Positions 6,314 to 25,470 of a DNA stretch of 25,470 bases are shown here, piece by piece; the first letter of the stretch is position 1, and every line of letters begins with the position of its first letter. Location of the stretch: the NCBI GenBank assembly GCA_964606035.1, contig CAZSFB010000002.1, positions 1-25,470 on the forward strand, written 5' to 3'. This DNA comes from an uncultured bacterium (GTDB lineage Bacteria > JAGRBM01 > JAHCIT01). The position numbers were made by a program, and so were the translations under genes. The notes under the pieces were generated by a model that saw nothing but the letters and a program-made list of their open reading frames with translations, did not search any database and was not told the origin of the DNA.

Positions 6314-8155
6314 ATGGAACTTCAACGCGCTGTATTTGGCCTGTGGAATGGTGGACATTTTCTCCACTTTGGCGAGGATATCGGCGCCCAGCGTCTGAAG
6401 GACCTGATCCGCCGGTCGTATGACCTTGGTATCCGCACGTTCGTCACGGCCGATGTGTACGGCGAGGGCGAAGCCGACACGATTGCCGGGGAAGTGCTGA
6501 GTGCCTATCCGCGCGACAGTTATTGCCTCGTGGGCGGGATCGGCCACGATTTTGTCAAGGGTGTCCGGCAAGGAGAGAAGGGATACCCCCGCTTCACCGA
6601 TCCTGCGCTCCGCACGGCTTCGGAGTTCAGGGACTATATACAGAGCGCCGTGGACAGCTCTCTTAAACGGTGCCGGACAGACCACTTCGACCTGCTGTTC
6701 CTGCACAACCCGGATCACACCGGTTACACCAGCCCCGCCATCTGGGATTCGCTCGCTGCGGTCAAGGCTTCAGGCAAAGCCCGGATGCTCGGCCTCGCCC
6801 CCGGCCCTGCCAATGGTTTCACCCTCGATATCATCAACTGCTTTGAGAAATACGGCGACAGGATTGACTGGGCCATGATCATCCTGAATCCACTGGAGCC
6901 CTGGCCGGGGAGTTATTGCTTCAAGGCCGCCAAGCAGCACAACATCAAGGTCCTGACCCGCGTGGTGGACTATGGCGGATTGTTCCACGGCTATATCCGG
7001 CCGGGACACCGGTTCTCCCGGTCCGATCATCGGGCCTTCCGCCCTGCCGGCTGGGTGGAAGAAGGGCTGAAGAAAGTCGACCTGATGCGGCCGATTGCGG
7101 AGCGCCACAACCTTTCCCTGCTCCAGTTTGCTTGCCAGTGGACTCTCGGCCATGAGCCGGTGGAGGCCTGTGTACCGACCTTGCTCCAGGAGGCCGGTCC
7201 TGATGCACGGCCTATCGAGAGCCAGCTTGAGGACCTTTCCAAGCTGCCTGAAAAGAAGCTTCTTTCCCCGGAAGAAGTCCGCGAAGTCACCGCCATCGGG
7301 GACAACAAGGGCTGCATGTCCCTGAAGGGAGGCTCCCGGCAGTACAACGGACCGCCGCAGGCCGATCAGTGGGCGATGACCCCTGAGCTTGAGGCTGTTG
7401 CCAAACGATGGGGATTCGAGCCGGACCGGGATTTCTACTTCGCACACGACCCCCGAGACATGCGCGAACGGGGCATGCCAGCCCGAGGCATCCCACAACT
7501 CATGGACCGCCGTCTCTATGTGCAGCTCCAGTGCTTTACCGGAGCCAACGGCACCGGACCGCTGGCGGAGGCACTCAAGAAAAGTGGTCTTGAGTCCGTC
7601 CTGTACATCAGTGCGAATGACCCTCACGGTGTCGGTGTAATTATTATCAGCGAGGACGAAAATACGTTCGTCACCCAGTCACGCGATCTGTTCAACAGCG
7701 AGCCGTTCTCGAAACTCACTCTCCTCCGCGAGTATACCATGTTCGGCCGCACCTACGGTTCTGGCCGGGAAGCCGATCTCGAGGATTGGCTGCTCCGCCA
7801 TGCACGGCGGAACGCCATGAACGAGGAAAGCCCCTGGGCAATCTGGTATCCGCTCCGCCGCAAGGGTGCATTCTACAAGCTTCCGGAAAGCGAGCAGGGA
7901 AAAATCCTGTTTGAACACGGGGTGATCGGTCGCAACTACGGAGCGGCCGGCCTTGCAAACGATATCCGGCTTGAAAGTTTCGGGATTGATTCCGATGACA
8001 ATGAGTTCGTCATCGGTCTGGTTGGTCCCAGACTCCAGCCGCTCTCGAGGCTGATCAAGGACATGCGATCAACAACCCAGACAGCGGAATACATGGATAA
8101 ACTGGGACCGTTCTTTGTTGGCAAAAAAGTCTGGCAGTCAGGTTACAGGGGCTAA
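6314..8155 (+). CDS. Aldo/keto-reductase-fold domain fused to a chlorite dismutase/coproheme decarboxylase (Cld/ChdC)-fold domain
   Basis: aa 1-~375 are AKR-like ('GIRTFVTADVYG', 'SLKRCRTDHFDLLFLHNPD', 'KARMLG', 'LLQFACQWTL'). aa ~383-613 are Cld/ChdC-like ('WYPLRRKGAFYKLPESEQGKILFEHGVIGR', 'FGIDSDDNEFVIGL'). No stop between the domains. Confidence 0.82.
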   Translation: MELQRAVFGLWNGGHFLHFGEDIGAQRLKDLIRRSYDLGIRTFVTADVYGEGEADTIAGEVLSAYPRDSYCLVGGIGHDFVKGVRQGEKGYPRFTDPALRTASEFRDYIQSAVDSSLKRCRTDHFDLLFLHNPDHTGYTSPAIWDSLAAVKASGKARMLGLAPGPANGFTLDIINCFEKYGDRIDWAMIILNPLEPWPGSYCFKAAKQHNIKVLTRVVDYGGLFHGYIRPGHRFSRSDHRAFRPAGWVEEGLKKVDLMRPIAERHNLSLLQFACQWTLGHEPVEACVPTLLQEAGPDARPIESQLEDLSKLPEKKLLSPEEVREVTAIGDNKGCMSLKGGSRQYNGPPQADQWAMTPELEAVAKRWGFEPDRDFYFAHDPRDMRERGMPARGIPQLMDRRLYVQLQCFTGANGTGPLAEALKKSGLESVLYISANDPHGVGVIIISEDENTFVTQSRDLFNSEPFSKLTLLREYTMFGRTYGSGREADLEDWLLRHARRNAMNEESPWAIWYPLRRKGAFYKLPESEQGKILFEHGVIGRNYGAAGLANDIRLESFGIDSDDNEFVIGLVGPRLQPLSRLIKDMRSTTQTAEYMDKLGPFFVGKKVWQSGYRG

Positions 8156-20802: not shown

Positions 20803-21573
20803 ATGAGTGGACAGCACTCCCAGCCAGCGTTCTTTTCGCCACGGCTCGGTCATGACTACCAGACCTTCTGGAGTTCCATGGCCGCCACCCCGGAGGGCGC
20901 ACGTCTCGCTGTGGCGGGGCATCCGTTCGGGCGCTATCCCGATGATCGCCTCGTTGAACTGCAGGGCATTCCGGTTGCACGGCTGATCGTCGAATGTCTC
21001 GGGCTAACGGATTCGGATACAGTTCTTGAAGTCGGCTGCGGTATCGGACGCCTTGCGCGCCATATCGTACCGCTCGTTCACGAGTATCACGGTGCCGACA
21101 TCTCCCCCGTCATGTGCATGCGGGCGGCGGAACAGCTCAGCAGGTTTCCCAATGCCTTCCTGCACTGGCTGCCCGACTGCAGCCTGCGGACATTTGAAGA
21201 CGAGTCAGTGGATGCCGTCTTCATCCAGCACGTGCTGGTACATCTCGAACTGCCGGACATCGTGAACTATCTCAGGGAAGCCCACAGGGTCCTGCTTCCC
21301 GGCGGGCGGATCTATACGCAGTTCTATAACCGCAATCACCCCCAGGGGTTCGACGAGACCGTCCACGCCGTTGACCAGCGCATCCGGGACGGCATCCAGC
21401 AGCGGGGACGTGTCTATTGCCATTCCGCCCGCGAGGTTGAGGAGTTTCTGACCGGCGCGGGCTTTGAACTGGACCCCGGGAGAAGCCATCTGGAACCCTG
21501 CTGCCAAAGGCGGGACTGGTGGCCTGACAATGATTTCTTTTTCTGGTTGATCGGGACCGGCATTAAGCGCTAA
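20803..21573 (+). CDS. Class I SAM-dependent methyltransferase
   Basis: Motif I 'VLEVGCGIG', 'YHGADISP', 'SVDAVF' and 'HRVLLPGG'. Start at ATG 20803 or TTG 20785. Confidence 0.88.
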   Translation: MSGQHSQPAFFSPRLGHDYQTFWSSMAATPEGARLAVAGHPFGRYPDDRLVELQGIPVARLIVECLGLTDSDTVLEVGCGIGRLARHIVPLVHEYHGADISPVMCMRAAEQLSRFPNAFLHWLPDCSLRTFEDESVDAVFIQHVLVHLELPDIVNYLREAHRVLLPGGRIYTQFYNRNHPQGFDETVHAVDQRIRDGIQQRGRVYCHSAREVEEFLTGAGFELDPGRSHLEPCCQRRDWWPDNDFFFWLIGTGIKR

Positions 21574-21585
21574 AAGCGCGCCGCC

Positions 21586-22590
21586 TTGTTTGTGCCCAAA
21601 GCCTACTACTTCGATGTCCATGCGCCTGAAGCGGGGATGAGACTGGACCGGCTCATCCGCAAACTGCTGCCGGATGATTCCCTTTCGAATATCCACCAGA
21701 TGATCCGGACCGGCGTCATCCAGGTGGGAACTCGCCGGGAAGCCAACAACTATCGACTGTGTGAGGGCGACGTGATTGTGCTGCCCAGACCCCCCGCAAT
21801 CCGGCGGACGAAGGCCCCTCCGCCAGAGACCCGTGACTGGACCGCCCCGAAGCCAAAAATCATCACTGAGAACGAGGACTGGGTGGCGATCTGGAAGCCC
21901 GGCGGCCTTTCCGTCCAGGGCGGAACGGGCCAGGGACCGTGGAGCGTCGTTAACTGGCTGAAAAACCAGTACCCGGACGCCGAGTTTCCCCCTGCTCCCG
22001 TGCACCGAATTGACCTTGACACCACCGGCCTGCTGATCGCCGCGAAATCACCACAGGCCGCCCGCTGGTTCCAACTCCACCTGAGCTCCCGCACCATGCG
22101 GAAATACTATCTTGCGCTGGTGGAAAGCCGGCCGCGGGAAGAACACTTTTTTATCGACGGCCCCCTGTTCCGGGCGACTTCAGGAAGAATCAAGATGGCC
22201 ATCGATCCGCGTGGAGTAGACGCGCTGACTGAGGTCTGGACGCTTTCTACCGGCCCCAAGGCCTCACTTGTAATGGCCTTCCCCCATACGGGCCGGACCC
22301 ACCAGATACGGGCCCACCTTGCCCATATCGGCTGCCCCATCCTCATGGATGAGCGGTATGGCTCCACCCAGCGGCTCCCGGAGGACCTCCGCCTTTTCGA
22401 GCGGATCTACCTCCATGCGTGGAGGCTGGACTTCGCGGTGCCGGACGGCGCCGATGAGCCGGGCAAGGAACTCCGCAAGCAGGTCGAGGCCCCACCGGAC
22501 GATATTTTCATGAAAGCGATCAAACACACCGGCAACCGGCTGCCGGAAGTCCCCTGGGGTCTGGGCACGAAAAAACGCCTGAGTGCATAG
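21586..22590 (+). CDS. RluA-family (RluC/RluD-like) pseudouridine synthase with S4 domain
   Basis: S4-like 'MRLDRLIRKLL', 'KPGGL', catalytic 'VHRIDLDTTGLL', 'KYYLALV', 'TGRTHQIRAH' and 'YLHA'. Confidence 0.93.
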   Translation: MFVPKAYYFDVHAPEAGMRLDRLIRKLLPDDSLSNIHQMIRTGVIQVGTRREANNYRLCEGDVIVLPRPPAIRRTKAPPPETRDWTAPKPKIITENEDWVAIWKPGGLSVQGGTGQGPWSVVNWLKNQYPDAEFPPAPVHRIDLDTTGLLIAAKSPQAARWFQLHLSSRTMRKYYLALVESRPREEHFFIDGPLFRATSGRIKMAIDPRGVDALTEVWTLSTGPKASLVMAFPHTGRTHQIRAHLAHIGCPILMDERYGSTQRLPEDLRLFERIYLHAWRLDFAVPDGADEPGKELRKQVEAPPDDIFMKAIKHTGNRLPEVPWGLGTKKRLSA

Positions 22591-22602
22591 GTGCATGACT
22601 CC

Positions 22603-22902
22603 ATGAGCAATGTGCTAACCTCCGGCGCTGTCATGCCGGTCTACCAGCAGAACCTCGACATCGCCTGGCGGGAAGTGGACCATGAAGCTGTACTGGTTGA
22701 TCCCGTCGCCCGCATGCTCAGAGTCTTGAACCCCGCAGGCACATTCCTCTGGAGTGCCATGGCGGTCCCTTCAACTCCGGAGGAACTGGCCGGACAGCTT
22801 TCACGGGAGTTCGGTATCGATACGGAAACCGCCCGCAAGGATGTGGATGCCTTCCTCCGGGTCCTTCTGGAACGCAAACTGGTCCGCGAGGTCACTCCCT
22901 GA
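22603..22902 (+). CDS. PqqD-family protein / RiPP recognition element
   Basis: Beta-strands 'IAWREVDHEAVLVD', then 'LNPAGTFLWSAM', 'EELAGQLSREFGID..TARKDVDAFLRVLLERKLV', which is the classic PqqD winged-helix pattern. Start uncertain (22591, 22603 or 22633). Confidence 0.9.
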   Translation: MSNVLTSGAVMPVYQQNLDIAWREVDHEAVLVDPVARMLRVLNPAGTFLWSAMAVPSTPEELAGQLSREFGIDTETARKDVDAFLRVLLERKLVREVTP

Positions 22903-22903
22903 C

Positions 22904-23353
22904 ATGGCGTCCAGACCGGAAATGCTCAAGGCGGTCGGAGACATTCTCCGGGAAGAAGTCATCCGCCGCGGCAGGCTCAACTTCAAGGTGACGGGAAAAT
23001 CCATGGCGCCGCTGCTCAGACCCGGCGACATGGTGACCGTGGAAAGGATCCGGCAGAGATGGCGGCTCATGCCGGGGGACTTGGTAGTCCTCTCCAATGA
23101 TGGCCCGGTTATCGTCCATCATTTCCTCTACTGGACCCTCGCCGATGGCGAAATCCACTTGCGTACGGTGGGCCGGAACAGTAAGGCGCTGGACCAGTTG
23201 TGGCCCCGCCGGTCACTGATCGGGCGTGTTACCCTGCGGGAACGCGGCCAGGTAAACCTCGAGGGACCCACTGCGCCGCTCTGGCTGGCCAGTTCCCTGT
23301 TCACGGCCATGGGCGGAATCATCCAATCCCGACTGGAGCGTCTGCTCAGGTGA
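22904..23353 (+). CDS. S24/S26-family peptidase
   Basis: 'FKVTGKSMAPLLRPGD' Ser motif, 'PGDLVV', 'IVHH', 'GRV' and a C-terminal amphipathic helix. ATG lies 1 nt after the PqqD stop. Confidence 0.82.
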   Translation: MASRPEMLKAVGDILREEVIRRGRLNFKVTGKSMAPLLRPGDMVTVERIRQRWRLMPGDLVVLSNDGPVIVHHFLYWTLADGEIHLRTVGRNSKALDQLWPRRSLIGRVTLRERGQVNLEGPTAPLWLASSLFTAMGGIIQSRLERLLR

Positions 23354-24171
23354 CCGATAATCTTCGACCGACTCTGGCTGGGCACCCTTTCGACGTGGCG
23401 GCGGCCCCCCGCCTCATTGAAGCCATGAACCGGATACTGGGCCCCGGCGTGGAACCAACTGGACGCGCCTACCGGCTCATGATCGTCGAAAAACGGACAT
23501 TGAACTATTCGGACCCCTACAAGGTGGCCGTTTCGCGGCGGGAACACGGATTTTCAGCCGGATCGTCCGCCTTCCGTGCGGACATCGAGTTCCCCGGCCG
23601 CAATATCCGGATCGAGATTGCTCCTCCGCCGGAGCGCTCCAGCACGGACCGCGACAACGCACTGGAAAACGCCCTCCGTCTGGTCACTCAGTGGCTCGCA
23701 TGGGAGCACCGGGGTTTCATTCTGCATGCCTGCGCCTTCGTGAGAAAGTCCGGTGGTGCAGTGGTTGCTTTCGGTCCTTCCGGAGCCGGAAAAAGCACAT
23801 TGGCTCGCCGGGCGCTGGAAAGCGGACGCCCTGTACTCGGCGACGATCTCGTCATCGTACGCGTTGAAAAGGGAGACCTCTCGGTGGAAGGGACCCCATT
23901 CTCCGGGTCCACGCCCCGGATCCCGTTCACTGCCGGCAAACGTCCCGTGACCATGCTGGTTAGCCTAGAGAAGGGCCCGGAGGTGCGACTTATGTCACAG
24001 TCTCCGGCGGAAAGGCTCTCGGCGCTCATGGCCCAGATCCAGGGAATCCCCGACCGTTCCAAAACGGAAACAGATTCACTCATGGATGCCCTCATTCCTG
24101 CGATTGACAGGACACCCGGAGGCACACTGGTCTTTGATCTGACCGGAGACCTCTGGCAAACTCTGGACTAG
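23350..24171 (+). CDS. HPr-kinase-related P-loop kinase
   Basis: 'GFILHACAF', Walker A 'GPSGAGKST' and 'LGDD' acidic motif. GTG at 23350 overlaps the peptidase TGA (GTGA). Confidence 0.82.
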   Translation: MTDNLRPTLAGHPFDVAAAPRLIEAMNRILGPGVEPTGRAYRLMIVEKRTLNYSDPYKVAVSRREHGFSAGSSAFRADIEFPGRNIRIEIAPPPERSSTDRDNALENALRLVTQWLAWEHRGFILHACAFVRKSGGAVVAFGPSGAGKSTLARRALESGRPVLGDDLVIVRVEKGDLSVEGTPFSGSTPRIPFTAGKRPVTMLVSLEKGPEVRLMSQSPAERLSALMAQIQGIPDRSKTETDSLMDALIPAIDRTPGGTLVFDLTGDLWQTLD

Positions 24172-25175
24172 TGTCCACGTTCAATGAAATCCGCGACAGG
24201 ATGGTCGCGAACCACCGGTTCGTAACGACCCAGCTCGAGCTCACCTATCGGTGCAACTACCACTGTTTGCATTGCTACTGTGTGGAGCAGCCCGAACGCC
24301 CGGAACTTTCAACCGAAGCCTTCAAAAATGTCATTGACCAGCTCTACGGGCTGGGTTGCATGAACATCACGTTCACAGGTGGCGAGGCCATCATCCGGAA
24401 GGACTTTTTTGAGCTCGCCACCTACGCCCGCTCAAAACGTTTCGTCATCCGGCTGTTTTCGAACGGGCATCTGCTCGACGGCGGCCGGCTTGAAAACCTG
24501 CTGGAACTGAAACCCATCTCGGTTGATATTTCCCTCTACGGCGCCAGCGACAGGACCTACGCGGCCGTCACCGGTGACGGTGAGAGATACTCCCGTGTCA
24601 AGCGCAACATCGAGAAACTGGCAGAGCGGGGCCAGCGGGTGATTGTGAAAATCCCGCTGATGCACGAGAGTTATCACGATCTCGACCGGATGATCCGATG
24701 GTGCAGGGAAATCGGCGTTCCATATCTCACCGACGTTTGGATGACCCCGAAAGATGACGGCTCCGTAAAGCCCACCAATCACGCACTGACCGACGACGAA
24801 CTCCGGGATTTTTTCAGCCGCTACGGGACCCGTGCGAAAAACCTCGTCCGGCATGATGACGAGGCGATCTGCACGGCGGCCTGCTCCTCGCCGATTATCT
24901 CCCCGAACGGCGACGTGTTCGCCTGTACCCAGAACAAGTTGCCCGCCGGGAATGTGCTGAACCAGCCGCTCGCGGAAATCTGGAAGGATTCCCCGTGGCT
25001 CAGGGAGGTCCGGTCGGTGAAGTGGCACCGTTTCACCGAGTGCCACACCTGCGAGTTCAGGGAAACCTGCTTCATCTGCCCGGCCATCAGCCTGTACGAA
25101 AACGGCCGCCTGGAAGGCCCCAATAGCCATGCCTGCCGGGTCGCCCGGATCCGGCATGAGCTGGGCCAAGTCTGA
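24171..25175 (+). CDS. Radical SAM/SPASM-domain protein
   Basis: CxxxCxxC 'CNYHCLHC', 'TGGEA' and 'SLYG'. SPASM cysteines 'CTAAC....PNGDVFAC' and 'CHTCEFRETCFICP...C'. GTG overlaps the kinase TAG by 1 nt. Confidence 0.95.
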   Translation: MSTFNEIRDRMVANHRFVTTQLELTYRCNYHCLHCYCVEQPERPELSTEAFKNVIDQLYGLGCMNITFTGGEAIIRKDFFELATYARSKRFVIRLFSNGHLLDGGRLENLLELKPISVDISLYGASDRTYAAVTGDGERYSRVKRNIEKLAERGQRVIVKIPLMHESYHDLDRMIRWCREIGVPYLTDVWMTPKDDGSVKPTNHALTDDELRDFFSRYGTRAKNLVRHDDEAICTAACSSPIISPNGDVFACTQNKLPAGNVLNQPLAEIWKDSPWLREVRSVKWHRFTECHTCEFRETCFICPAISLYENGRLEGPNSHACRVARIRHELGQV

Positions 25176-25177
25176 CG

Positions 25178-25470
25178 CTAGGCTGCAGCCAGTATTCCTA
25201 GCAGTTCGTCGCGGGTCGCCCCGCCCTCCATGACCCGGACCGCCACCCGGTCAATCGTTCGTGGGTGTTTTTTCAGCAACTCTCGCCAGTGGATTCCATA
25301 CTGCTCCACCGCCTCTGTGAGTGCTTTCGCCTTCCTCTTGAGGAGTGGCATTTTCCCAAAGCTGTTGATGACCGCGCCGGTCCTCCGGCTGTGGATCATC
25401 CAGTCGCCAGTGCTCATGTCTGGTATTGAACCCGCTGGAACGCCCACGATTCGGCGGGCTTCCTCAATGG
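25178..25470 (-). CDS. C-terminal part of a hypothetical protein (5'-truncated by the window edge)
   Basis: The frame stays open from the TAG at 25178-25180 to the window end (…IEEARRIVGVPAGSIPD…LLGILAAA). Convergent with the rSAM gene. No family recognised. Confidence 0.5.
   Translation of the reverse strand, partial: IEEARRIVGVPAGSIPDMSTGDWMIHSRRTGAVINSFGKMPLLKRKAKALTEAVEQYGIHWRELLKKHPRTIDRVAVRVMEGGATRDELLGILAAA

Follow-up and report, generated by a model that had tools for sequence, protein, structure and literature searches.

Organization of the Cassette

The window analyzed here, a stretch of 25,470 nt of contig CAZSFB010000002.1 (31,363 bp in all), comes from an activated-sludge bacterium and carries four tightly packed genes, g1 to g4, on its plus strand. 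They form a real and conserved cassette of the kind devoted to peptides that the ribosome makes and that are modified after translation (RiPPs), in which the recognition, phosphorylation and leader cleavage typical of linear polyphosphorylated peptides (LPPs) and phosphorylated lasso peptides are joined to a radical S-adenosylmethionine (rSAM) enzyme with a SPASM domain. The genes encode, in this order, a PqqD-family RiPP recognition element (RRE), a signal peptidase I-like (SpI-like) leader peptidase, a putative ScmC-family kinase of the fold shared by HprK and phosphoenolpyruvate carboxykinase (PEPCK), and the rSAM/SPASM enzyme. The features of the cassette are as follows.

22603-22902, plus strand: g1, PqqD-family RRE, 99 amino acids, ATG start
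22904-23353, plus strand: g2, SpI-like leader peptidase, 149 amino acids, ATG start
23000-23002, 23117-23119 and 23192-23194, plus strand: codons of the g2 catalytic triad Ser33, His72 and Asp97, based on conservation among homologs
23350-24171, plus strand: g3, putative ScmC-family P-loop kinase of the HprK/PEPCK fold, 273 amino acids, GTG start
23773-23799, plus strand: g3 Walker A motif G142PSGAGKST150, invariant in 17 homologs
23842-23847, plus strand: g3 metal-binding pair D165-D166, invariant in 17 homologs
24171-25175, plus strand: g4, radical-SAM/SPASM enzyme and putative peptide maturase, 334 amino acids, GTG start
24252-24275, plus strand: g4 radical-SAM cluster motif C28-x3-C32-x2-C35, read from the sequence and invariant in the homolog alignment
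24870-25136, plus strand: g4 SPASM region with C234, C252, C291, C294, C300, C303 and C322, conserved in the homolog alignment

The close coupling of the genes and the presence of all the catalytic motifs, both noted in a preliminary description of the locus, were confirmed from the sequence: a single base (22903) lies between the g1 stop codon and the g2 ATG, g2 and g3 overlap by 4 nt (GTGA), and g3 and g4 overlap by 1 nt (TAGTG). Genes called independently on the source contig include the same four. The true start of g1 is uncertain, since GTG 22591 and ATG 22633 are also possible; the latter agrees with the length of the homologs in L001, L097 and L099 (88-89 amino acids).

Conservation and Relatives of the Cassette

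The window clade comprises five loci: the window, L001 (GCA_964565925.1), L097, L098 and L099. The four contigs other than the window carry the genes in the identical order PqqD-SpI-ScmC-rSAM, with amino acid identities of 56-86%, and since the same order recurs in these four contigs, the arrangement is not due to chance. The ratios of nonsynonymous to synonymous substitution rates (dN/dS) of the four genes range from 0.09 to 0.47, with synonymous sites near saturation, and all four are under purifying selection. No further member of the clade was detected in a scan of metagenome contigs, in which the best match was 38% identical.

In the next clade out, consisting of L002 and L015, the rSAM enzymes are 49-51% identical to g4, and a near-identical rSAM of the L002 type carries a Bdellovibrionota label. 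Both of these loci encode one protein in which the peptidase is joined to the kinase (L002:237-1496, 419 amino acids; L015:213-1538, 441 amino acids, also P0036), which is a strong sign that the two enzymes act together, and on the cytoplasmic side. The loci L003 to L005 (43% identity) and L007 and L008 (39%, with Planctomycetota labels) show the order NTP_transf_5-PqqD-ScmC-rSAM-small open reading frame (ORF)-SpI. The NTP_transf_5 gene is present in the relatives L003, L007 and L016 and in many metagenome loci. In L016 (2147-7205), a lasso B2-type Transglut_core3 protease is encoded beside the PqqD gene and no SpI-like peptidase was found; the Transglut_core3 protease therefore stands in for it. 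The same locus carries a 75-amino-acid precursor with five cysteines, followed by genes for a PRMT-like methyltransferase and an ABC transporter.

The distribution of these genes was assessed in a census of 80 metagenome loci with related rSAM enzymes (27-38% identity to g4). Beside the rSAM gene, PqqD was found in 47 of the 80 loci, ScmC in 41, SpI in 29 and NTP_transf_5 in 27, and all four accompany it in 17; these counts are lower bounds because many of the contigs are short. A word-indexed search of 5.8 billion proteins gave 27 relatives of g4 at E <= 1e-10, and a looser metagenome scan several hundred further, more distant ones. In a set of 1.84 billion representative proteins, 920 are related to the g2 family at E <= 1e-3, with fusions to NTP_transf_5 in some cases, and a scan of genome contigs with a kinase profile pointed to at least five distant loci.

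Some of the more distant cassettes depart from the basic pattern. Two full cassettes occur in tandem in L031:2150-11160, with unrelated precursors ending in ...ATYICP and ...SYCCENHT. In cassettes of the soil type, a further gene, about 287 codons long and without any Pfam match, lies between the SpI-like peptidase and ScmC (L049:6421-7284); in L073, the gene at this position matches the ScmC hidden Markov model (HMM) weakly and may be a divergent second kinase-like paralog.

The RRE Protein and the Peptidase

The g1 protein matches the Pfam PqqD model with 57.7 bits, and its best NCBIfam matches are lasso B1-type chaperones, every one of them under its cut-off. It is conserved in L001, L097 and L099 (56-63% identity, dN/dS 0.09-0.27) and, judging by its sequence, is a discrete lasso-type PqqD/RRE.

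The g2 protein matches Pfam Peptidase_S24 with 26.1 bits (cut-off 23.3) and S26 weakly, and reaches 30 bits against NCBIfam sigpep_I_arch, which is under the cut-off. The residues S33, H72 and D97 are invariant in six cassette-linked homologs; a wider set of 32 relatives has S33 and H72 throughout and D97 in at least 90% of its members. The spacing of the triad (39 and 25 residues) is that of S29/H68/D93 in LppS, the leader peptidase of the LPP pathway (PMC13381572). The AlphaFold2 (AF2) model of g2 has a mean confidence score (pLDDT) of 88.4, and its best fold matches in the PDB are human SEC11C/SEC11A, SipA of Streptococcus pyogenes and SpsB of Staphylococcus aureus. The conserved Ser/His/Asp triad together with these fold matches show that g2 is an ER/archaeal-type (S26B-like) signal-peptidase-like enzyme and not one of the Ser/Lys LepB type.

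In the preliminary description, the cassette was taken to mature a peptide or a secreted protein at the membrane; neither the location at the membrane nor the secreted protein is borne out. None of the g1-g4 proteins is hydrophobic enough anywhere to span a membrane, the highest Kyte-Doolittle means over 19 residues ranging from 1.19 to 1.36. In g2, where this maximum is 1.19, the N-terminus forms a helix in place of the membrane anchor of true signal peptidases. Since homologs of g2 are fused to an ATP-using kinase in two relatives, g2 is placed in the cytoplasm.

The Kinase

In our own Pfam scan, g3 gave weak P-loop and Hpr_kinase_C matches alone, the PF27840 (ScmC) model not appearing; the precomputed annotation does list PF27840, marked "weak" in the case of the window protein and unmarked in that of several relatives. 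The AF2 model (pLDDT 85, predicted template modeling score 0.84) has HprK/P (1ko7, 1knx, 1kkl) and ATP-PEPCK as its top PDB fold matches, and a sequence-profile search of the PDB sequences led to PEPCK; HPr kinase/phosphorylase and ATP-dependent PEP carboxykinase are two members of one P-loop fold. In addition to the Walker A motif and the D165-D166 pair, the homologs retain N107, R110 and H126. The D165-D166 pair is the equivalent of D158/D159 in PsmK, the D158A/D159A double mutant of which is inactive (PMC6993621).

The lasso cluster of a Planktotalea sp. metagenome-assembled genome (L011:5344-8911), which encodes a precursor PYEAPKL...FFQMS-stop, an Asn-synthetase-like cyclase, an HprK-like kinase and a PqqD B1 protein, served as a bridge between g3 and the kinases tailoring lasso peptides. 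The catalytic core of g3 is 47% identical to the kinase of this cluster, whose precursor ends in Ser.

The Radical SAM/SPASM Enzyme

The g4 protein matches the Pfam Radical_SAM and SPASM models with 83.1 and 39.3 bits, respectively, and carries a GGE70 motif in addition to the CX3CX2C motif. The seven conserved cysteines in its SPASM region would suffice to bind two auxiliary Fe-S clusters. These motifs and the RRE partner would fit a peptide maturase, a class also marked by an associated precursor, which lies beside the rSAM gene in the relatives only. Among proteins of solved structure, the thioether-forming SkfB (6efn, E 2.6e-18) comes closest to g4 in sequence, with PqqE next. Among the NCBIfam models, the best match is MftC (120.5 bits, cut-off 265), with a full-length alignment and an E-value of 8e-35.

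Comparison with Named Families

None of the g1-g4 proteins reaches a curated NCBIfam cut-off, including those of the SynChlorMet, HPr-rel-A, GeoRSP, mycofactocin, PQQ and AhbC/AhbD/NirJ models, nor do those of one representative soil-type relative. The filing of the cassette with the SynChlorMet or HPr-rel types in the preliminary description therefore has to be abandoned, every relevant model lying far under its cut-off. For SynChlorMet (TIGR04248-04251), the scores are 21.1 bits against a cut-off of 125 (ScmC), 27.4 against 100 (ScmD), 69.7 against 400 (ScmE) and 58.3 against 400 (ScmF); for HPr-rel-A (TIGR04352/04353), they are 24.9 against 200 (HprK_rel_A) and 19.1 against 35 (PqqD_rel_X). 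Two or three rSAM/SPASM paralogs lie in tandem around a single precursor in L022:4135-7524 and L025:2197-4567 (the L022 precursor reads ...KPYAPPAIKFEKRIEAFASACTCNTEQ...GADNYS-stop); this pairing recalls the two-rSAM layout of SynChlorMet, and the L022 rSAM that was scanned scored far under the NCBIfam cut-offs.

The heme and heme d1 models score 107.6 bits (AhbD, cut-off 500), 105.7 (NirJ2, cut-off 500), 87 (NirJ, cut-off 515) and 86.5 (AhbC, cut-off 650); g4 thus does not belong to AhbC/D or NirJ, and the four genes of the cassette are conserved jointly. The view that it is neither a PQQ nor a lasso cluster stands. PqqE (89.6 bits against 381) and PqqD (14.7 against 46) are under their cut-offs, and none of the companions MftA/D/E/F and PqqA/B/C is encoded in the window or the source contig. 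The gene calls of the source contig and the window's larger ORFs include neither a lasso Asn-synthetase-like cyclase nor a B2 transglutaminase-type protease; Asn_synthase was recovered in L011 as a positive control.

Precursor Peptides of the Related Cassettes

In most of the complete relative cassettes, a small ORF directly adjoins the rSAM gene. The predicted precursors are about 50-75 amino acids long (53-93 in the Planctomycetota type), and none matches any NCBIfam model. The Planctomycetota-type precursor (...YEPPAIILERRIEAVANTCAFDPPLTKSNAGEGCTGLTFS-stop) belongs to a family of which 39 members were found, with the consensus ...YEPPAII(L/F)E(R/K)(R/V)IEAVANTC(A/N)FDPPLTKSNAGEGCTG(L/M)TFS-stop; its core is nearly invariant and its C-terminus ...TFS-stop invariant. 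The soil-type precursor reads MATQEKRPYEKPTLEPSSIFGADTTTCCRATNGTCSTAQRTSMGKGSRTSTTS-stop. That of the L015 type (...PYEAPRIVHEETVQSVAVACDPS...FCQNGFLNS-stop) is encoded immediately downstream of the rSAM gene and convergent to it, and that of the L016 type, with its five cysteines, ends in ...WS-stop. Further types were found in L022, L024-27, L034, L054 and L061, among others. P0125 (129 amino acids, on a 598-bp contig) is an apparent fusion of a PqqD/RRE with a Planctomycetota-type precursor (...YSPPAIIFAKQIEAVAASCAFDPPLTKAGGGDGCTGLTFS), which may be either real or a read-through gene call.

All these precursors carry a (Y/W)xxPx(I/L/V) motif of the lasso/LPP type, known to bind RREs, in the leader. 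In most of them, the first Cys is the 19th residue counting from the leader Tyr (about 18 after it), and the C-terminal residue is Ser in most and Thr in some. Placed by analogy 16 residues past the Tyr, the leader cleavage site would fall after AVA in the Planctomycetota type, ADT in the soil type and SVA in L015, and the conserved Cys would become core position 3.

A precursor gene is lacking in the window, a point not made in the preliminary description. Six-frame regular-expression scans for YEPP, GCTG and (Y/W/F)xxPx(LIVMFA) in the window clade (the 31-kb contig, the 21 kb of L001, L097, L098 and L099) and in L002 gave no credible candidate. An HMM trained on 37 of the 39 precursors in the family and run with --max on stop-to-stop segments of at least 15 amino acids from the 31-kb contig, L001, L002 and L009 found none either, and tblastn of window ORF fragments against L001 revealed no conserved small ORF common to the two. 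A 56-amino-acid ORF with a TTG start, antisense within a Coq4-like gene (L006:11256-11426, window 25426 onward; WVCPKI...PPSVS), fits the loose motif; it was rejected as a chance occurrence since it is not conserved and the region is missing from L001 and L097. Substrates embedded in the C-terminal tail of the upstream RluA protein, in the neighboring methyltransferase or in terminal extensions of g1, g3 and g4 were also rejected, the motif being present in none of them. With no neighboring precursor in the window clade, the substrate would have to come in trans.

Comparison with Known Systems

The closest characterized system is the pathway by which Bacillota make LPPs, with the components LppA/K/B/S/D/N (Popov et al., Nat Commun 2026, PMC13381572), in which the RRE LppB, the HprK-like LppK and the SpI-like LppS act together. 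LppK puts several phosphates onto the core Ser3, and LppS, in which S29, H68 and D93 are experimentally essential, cuts after T-1 only in the presence of LppB, 16 residues past the Tyr of YxxP in a leader of the form YxxPxVLxHQxIxFETxxS; a phosphorylated linear peptide was the sole product observed (PMC13381572). The claim in the preliminary description that such groupings lack a characterized product hence no longer holds as far as the RRE, kinase and peptidase are concerned, the rSAM/SPASM enzyme being the addition. LPPs were stated to be restricted to Bacillota, and no mention of radical SAM or of Planctomycetes occurs in that paper (PMC13381572).

A discrete lasso-type RRE, an HprK-like kinase and a leader peptidase of the SipW/archaeal type with a Ser/His/Asp triad are common to the LPP pathway and the window cassette, and the relatives of the latter also share with LPPs the YxxPx(V/I/L) motif, the Tyr 16 residues before the inferred cut and the NTP_transf_5 gene. 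The two differ in several respects. In LPP biosynthesis, phosphorylation is the main modification and no further enzyme modifies the core (PMC13381572). The window has an rSAM/SPASM gene translationally coupled to the kinase gene, whereas LPP clusters have none; its kinase appears to be of the ScmC type (PF27840); and the MsbA-like exporter, the nucleotidyltransferase and the precursor of the LPP clusters are all lacking in it. In the precursors of the relatives, Cys replaces the phospho-acceptor Ser3, the C-terminal residue is mostly Ser and the leader sequence is otherwise different. In contrast to the Bacillota hosts of LPPs, the relatives are labeled as Planctomycetota and Bdellovibrionota and were found in metagenomes of sludge and soil.

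In the phosphorylated lasso peptides (paeninodin, pseudomycoidin and the proteobacterial A-C-K-B1 type; PMC6993621, PMC5067487), an RRE and an HprK-like kinase are likewise combined, with or without an NTP-transferase, and the YxxPxL leader and the C-terminal Ser phospho-acceptor match what is found in the relatives of the window cassette. In lasso precursors, the C-terminal Ser is the residue that PadeK and PsmK phosphorylate, and the NTP-transferase PsmN attaches a hexose to the phosphate (PMC6993621). Unlike these clusters, the window carries no Asn-synthetase-like cyclase and no B2 protease, and its rSAM enzyme would form a cross-link instead of a macrolactam.

The sactipeptide and ranthipeptide maturases SkfB, AlbA and StsB resemble g4 in being RRE-dependent rSAM enzymes with a full SPASM domain that act on Cys-containing cores. 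These systems usually combine RRE and maturase in one protein, whereas the RRE is a separate protein here; they have no kinase or SpI-like peptidase as partners, and g4 scores far under the cut-offs of these families. In the mycofactocin (MftB/MftC/MftE) and PQQ (PqqD/PqqE/PqqF) systems, a small precursor is likewise processed by a stand-alone PqqD-type chaperone together with an rSAM/SPASM enzyme and a peptidase, but the window has a kinase in addition and the precursors of its relatives are unrelated to MftA and PqqA. SynChlorMet (ScmC/D/E/F), HPr-rel-A and GeoRSP also contain a ScmC/HprK-related P-loop protein and a PqqD relative, to which SynChlorMet and GeoRSP add rSAM/SPASM enzymes; to our knowledge, the definitions of these three systems include no SpI-like peptidase. 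Phospeptin, the chemistry of which is reportedly of the lanthipeptide type, was considered as well. It was set aside as a comparator because its chemistry appears different (PMC9259500). No description of the wider family of rSAM-containing cassettes was found in the literature searched (SynChlorMet, and HPr kinase or HprK with radical SAM) or in NCBIfam.

Neighboring Genes

Two genes adjoin the cassette upstream and were identified by Pfam.

20878-21573, plus strand: class-I SAM methyltransferase
21586-22590, plus strand: RluA-type pseudouridine synthase

Both are also present upstream in L001 and L099, the RluA gene lies at the start of L097, and the pair is missing from the more distant cassettes. 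They are probably syntenic neighbors outside the cassette: membership was rejected because a minus-strand DUF6923 gene stands between the pair and the PqqD gene in L099. Since the RluA gene ends 12 nt upstream of g1, the two are nevertheless probably co-transcribed in the window. The C-terminal tail of RluA is conserved, EAPPDD(I/L)FMKA(I/L)(K/R)HTGNRLP (window 21586-22590 and the start of L097).

Downstream, a minus-strand Coq4-like gene, the stop codon of which is 2 nt away from that of g4, is followed by genes for a MarR regulator and an AurF-like di-iron oxygenase (window 25178-25470 onward, L006:11008-13595). These genes form an insertion between the rSAM gene and a block encoding a hydrolase, AI-2E and cNMP-binding proteins, which directly follows the rSAM gene in L001 and L097. 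Elsewhere in the window (6314-8155, plus strand), an ORF of 613 codons combines an N-terminal aldo/keto reductase with a C-terminal chlorite-dismutase-family domain, an unusual fusion.

Proposed Function and Alternative Explanations

The domains, the folds and the precursors of the relatives support the RRE-dependent, RiPP-type modification of a peptide put forward in the preliminary description. In the light of homology and of the precursors of related cassettes, g1-g4 probably act in the cytoplasm as a cassette that matures a peptide made by the ribosome and supplied in trans. The chemistry, order and sites of the steps can be sketched by analogy. The RRE g1 would bind a leader carrying (Y/W)xxPx(I/L/V) and hand the peptide to the enzymes. 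The rSAM enzyme g4 would cross-link the Cys-containing core by SAM-derived radical chemistry; because of the conserved cysteines and the likeness of g4 to SkfB, a Cys-derived thioether would be the most likely product, with the conserved first Cys at core position 3. The kinase g3 would phosphorylate a core Ser, possibly several times, the conserved C-terminal Ser being favored by analogy with the lasso kinases and a site near the core N-terminus, as in LPPs, being the alternative. While the RRE holds the leader, g2 would remove it in an RRE-dependent manner, about 16 residues past the Tyr.

Several points weigh against this scheme. The scans of the window clade and the comparison with L001 brought up no adjacent substrate gene, and neither an NTP-transferase nor an MsbA-like exporter is encoded in the window or the 31-kb source contig. 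The best-scoring named families of g4 are mixed (MftC, AhbD, NirJ2 and PqqE). A minority of the related precursors end in neither Ser nor Thr. The type of cross-link and the site of phosphorylation are guesses. Lastly, the fragments of g2 and g4 present in two sludge metatranscriptome assemblies are weak evidence that the two genes are transcribed, as they come from contigs alone and could be due to DNA carry-over.

The best surviving alternative, itself unlikely, is that the cassette makes a small molecule or cofactor derived from a peptide, as in the case of mycofactocin and PQQ: the RRE and the rSAM enzyme would modify C-terminal residues of the precursor, the peptidase would trim it, and the phosphate would activate or tag the product. 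MftB/MftC/MftE and PqqD/PqqE/PqqF do follow the logic of RRE, rSAM/SPASM enzyme and peptidase, MftC is the best NCBIfam match of g4 over its full length (E 8e-35) with PqqE also scoring high, and the Planctomycetota-type core, almost invariant across dozens of contigs with its invariant ...TFS-stop, looks more like a cofactor or a signal than a diversifying antibiotic. However, the MftC, PqqE and PqqD scores are far under their cut-offs, no MftD/F or PqqB/C homologs occur in the window or the source contig, the cores of other branches of the family are very different, and the nearest characterized set of RRE, kinase and SpI-like peptidase has a phosphorylated linear peptide as the sole product observed (PMC13381572).

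It is less probable still that the window clade has lost its precursor, nucleotidyltransferase and exporter and that the four genes are an orphan remnant, idle or decaying. A precursor and NTP_transf_5 were indeed found in none of the five clade loci, nor was an exporter near the cassette, and relatives beyond the clade carry a precursor as well as NTP_transf_5, but none of the four ORFs is disrupted in any of five independent contigs and every catalytic residue is retained, their dN/dS values are 0.09-0.47, the translational coupling is preserved and transcript fragments were detected. Since the genes are intact, coupled and under purifying selection, with the weak transcript evidence in addition, a precursor encoded elsewhere in the genome is favored over a decaying remnant. 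The very improbable case of a non-RiPP substrate, whether by tetrapyrrole chemistry of the AhbD/NirJ type or by membrane-bound processing of a protein that is full-length or secreted, can draw on AhbD and NirJ2 being the second and third best NCBIfam matches of g4 and on the signal-peptidase superfamily membership of g2, and has against it the 105-108 bits of these matches against cut-offs of 500, the discrete RRE, a hallmark of peptide substrates (PMC13381572), the small precursor genes directly beside the rSAM gene in homologous cassettes, the lack of any segment of transmembrane strength in g1-g4 and the peptidase-kinase fusion in L002 and L015.

Returning to the cytoplasmic maturation of a trans-encoded peptide, we tentatively suggest that the cassettes as a whole might represent an undescribed and widespread RiPP class, in which recognition of the lasso/LPP type, phosphorylation and SpI-like cleavage would be combined with the rSAM/SPASM cross-linking of the Cys at core position 3, and which might make a conserved phosphopeptide resembling a signal or a cofactor. 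With cores that hardly vary and a C-terminal Ser that is invariant, a signaling or cofactor-like phosphopeptide is suggested rather than an antibiotic, and the selection on the enzymes of the window clade, in which no precursor adjoins them, points to substrates encoded in trans or to a new kind of substrate.

It was not until 2026 that SpI-like leader peptidases and the machinery of the LPPs appeared in work on RiPPs, described as confined to Bacillota, and the module consisting of RRE, kinase and SpI-like peptidase is seen here beyond the Bacillota, in other lineages, wired to an rSAM/SPASM enzyme. From this gene set a so far unreported type of product is predicted, a phosphopeptide with radically formed cross-links, possibly decorated further by a nucleotidyltransferase, and the precursors of the relatives give concrete predictions as to where the leader is cut, as to the Cys at core position 3 and as to the C-terminal Ser. 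The window clade, orphan and yet under selection, raises the question as to how RRE-dependent enzymes find substrates that are encoded elsewhere.

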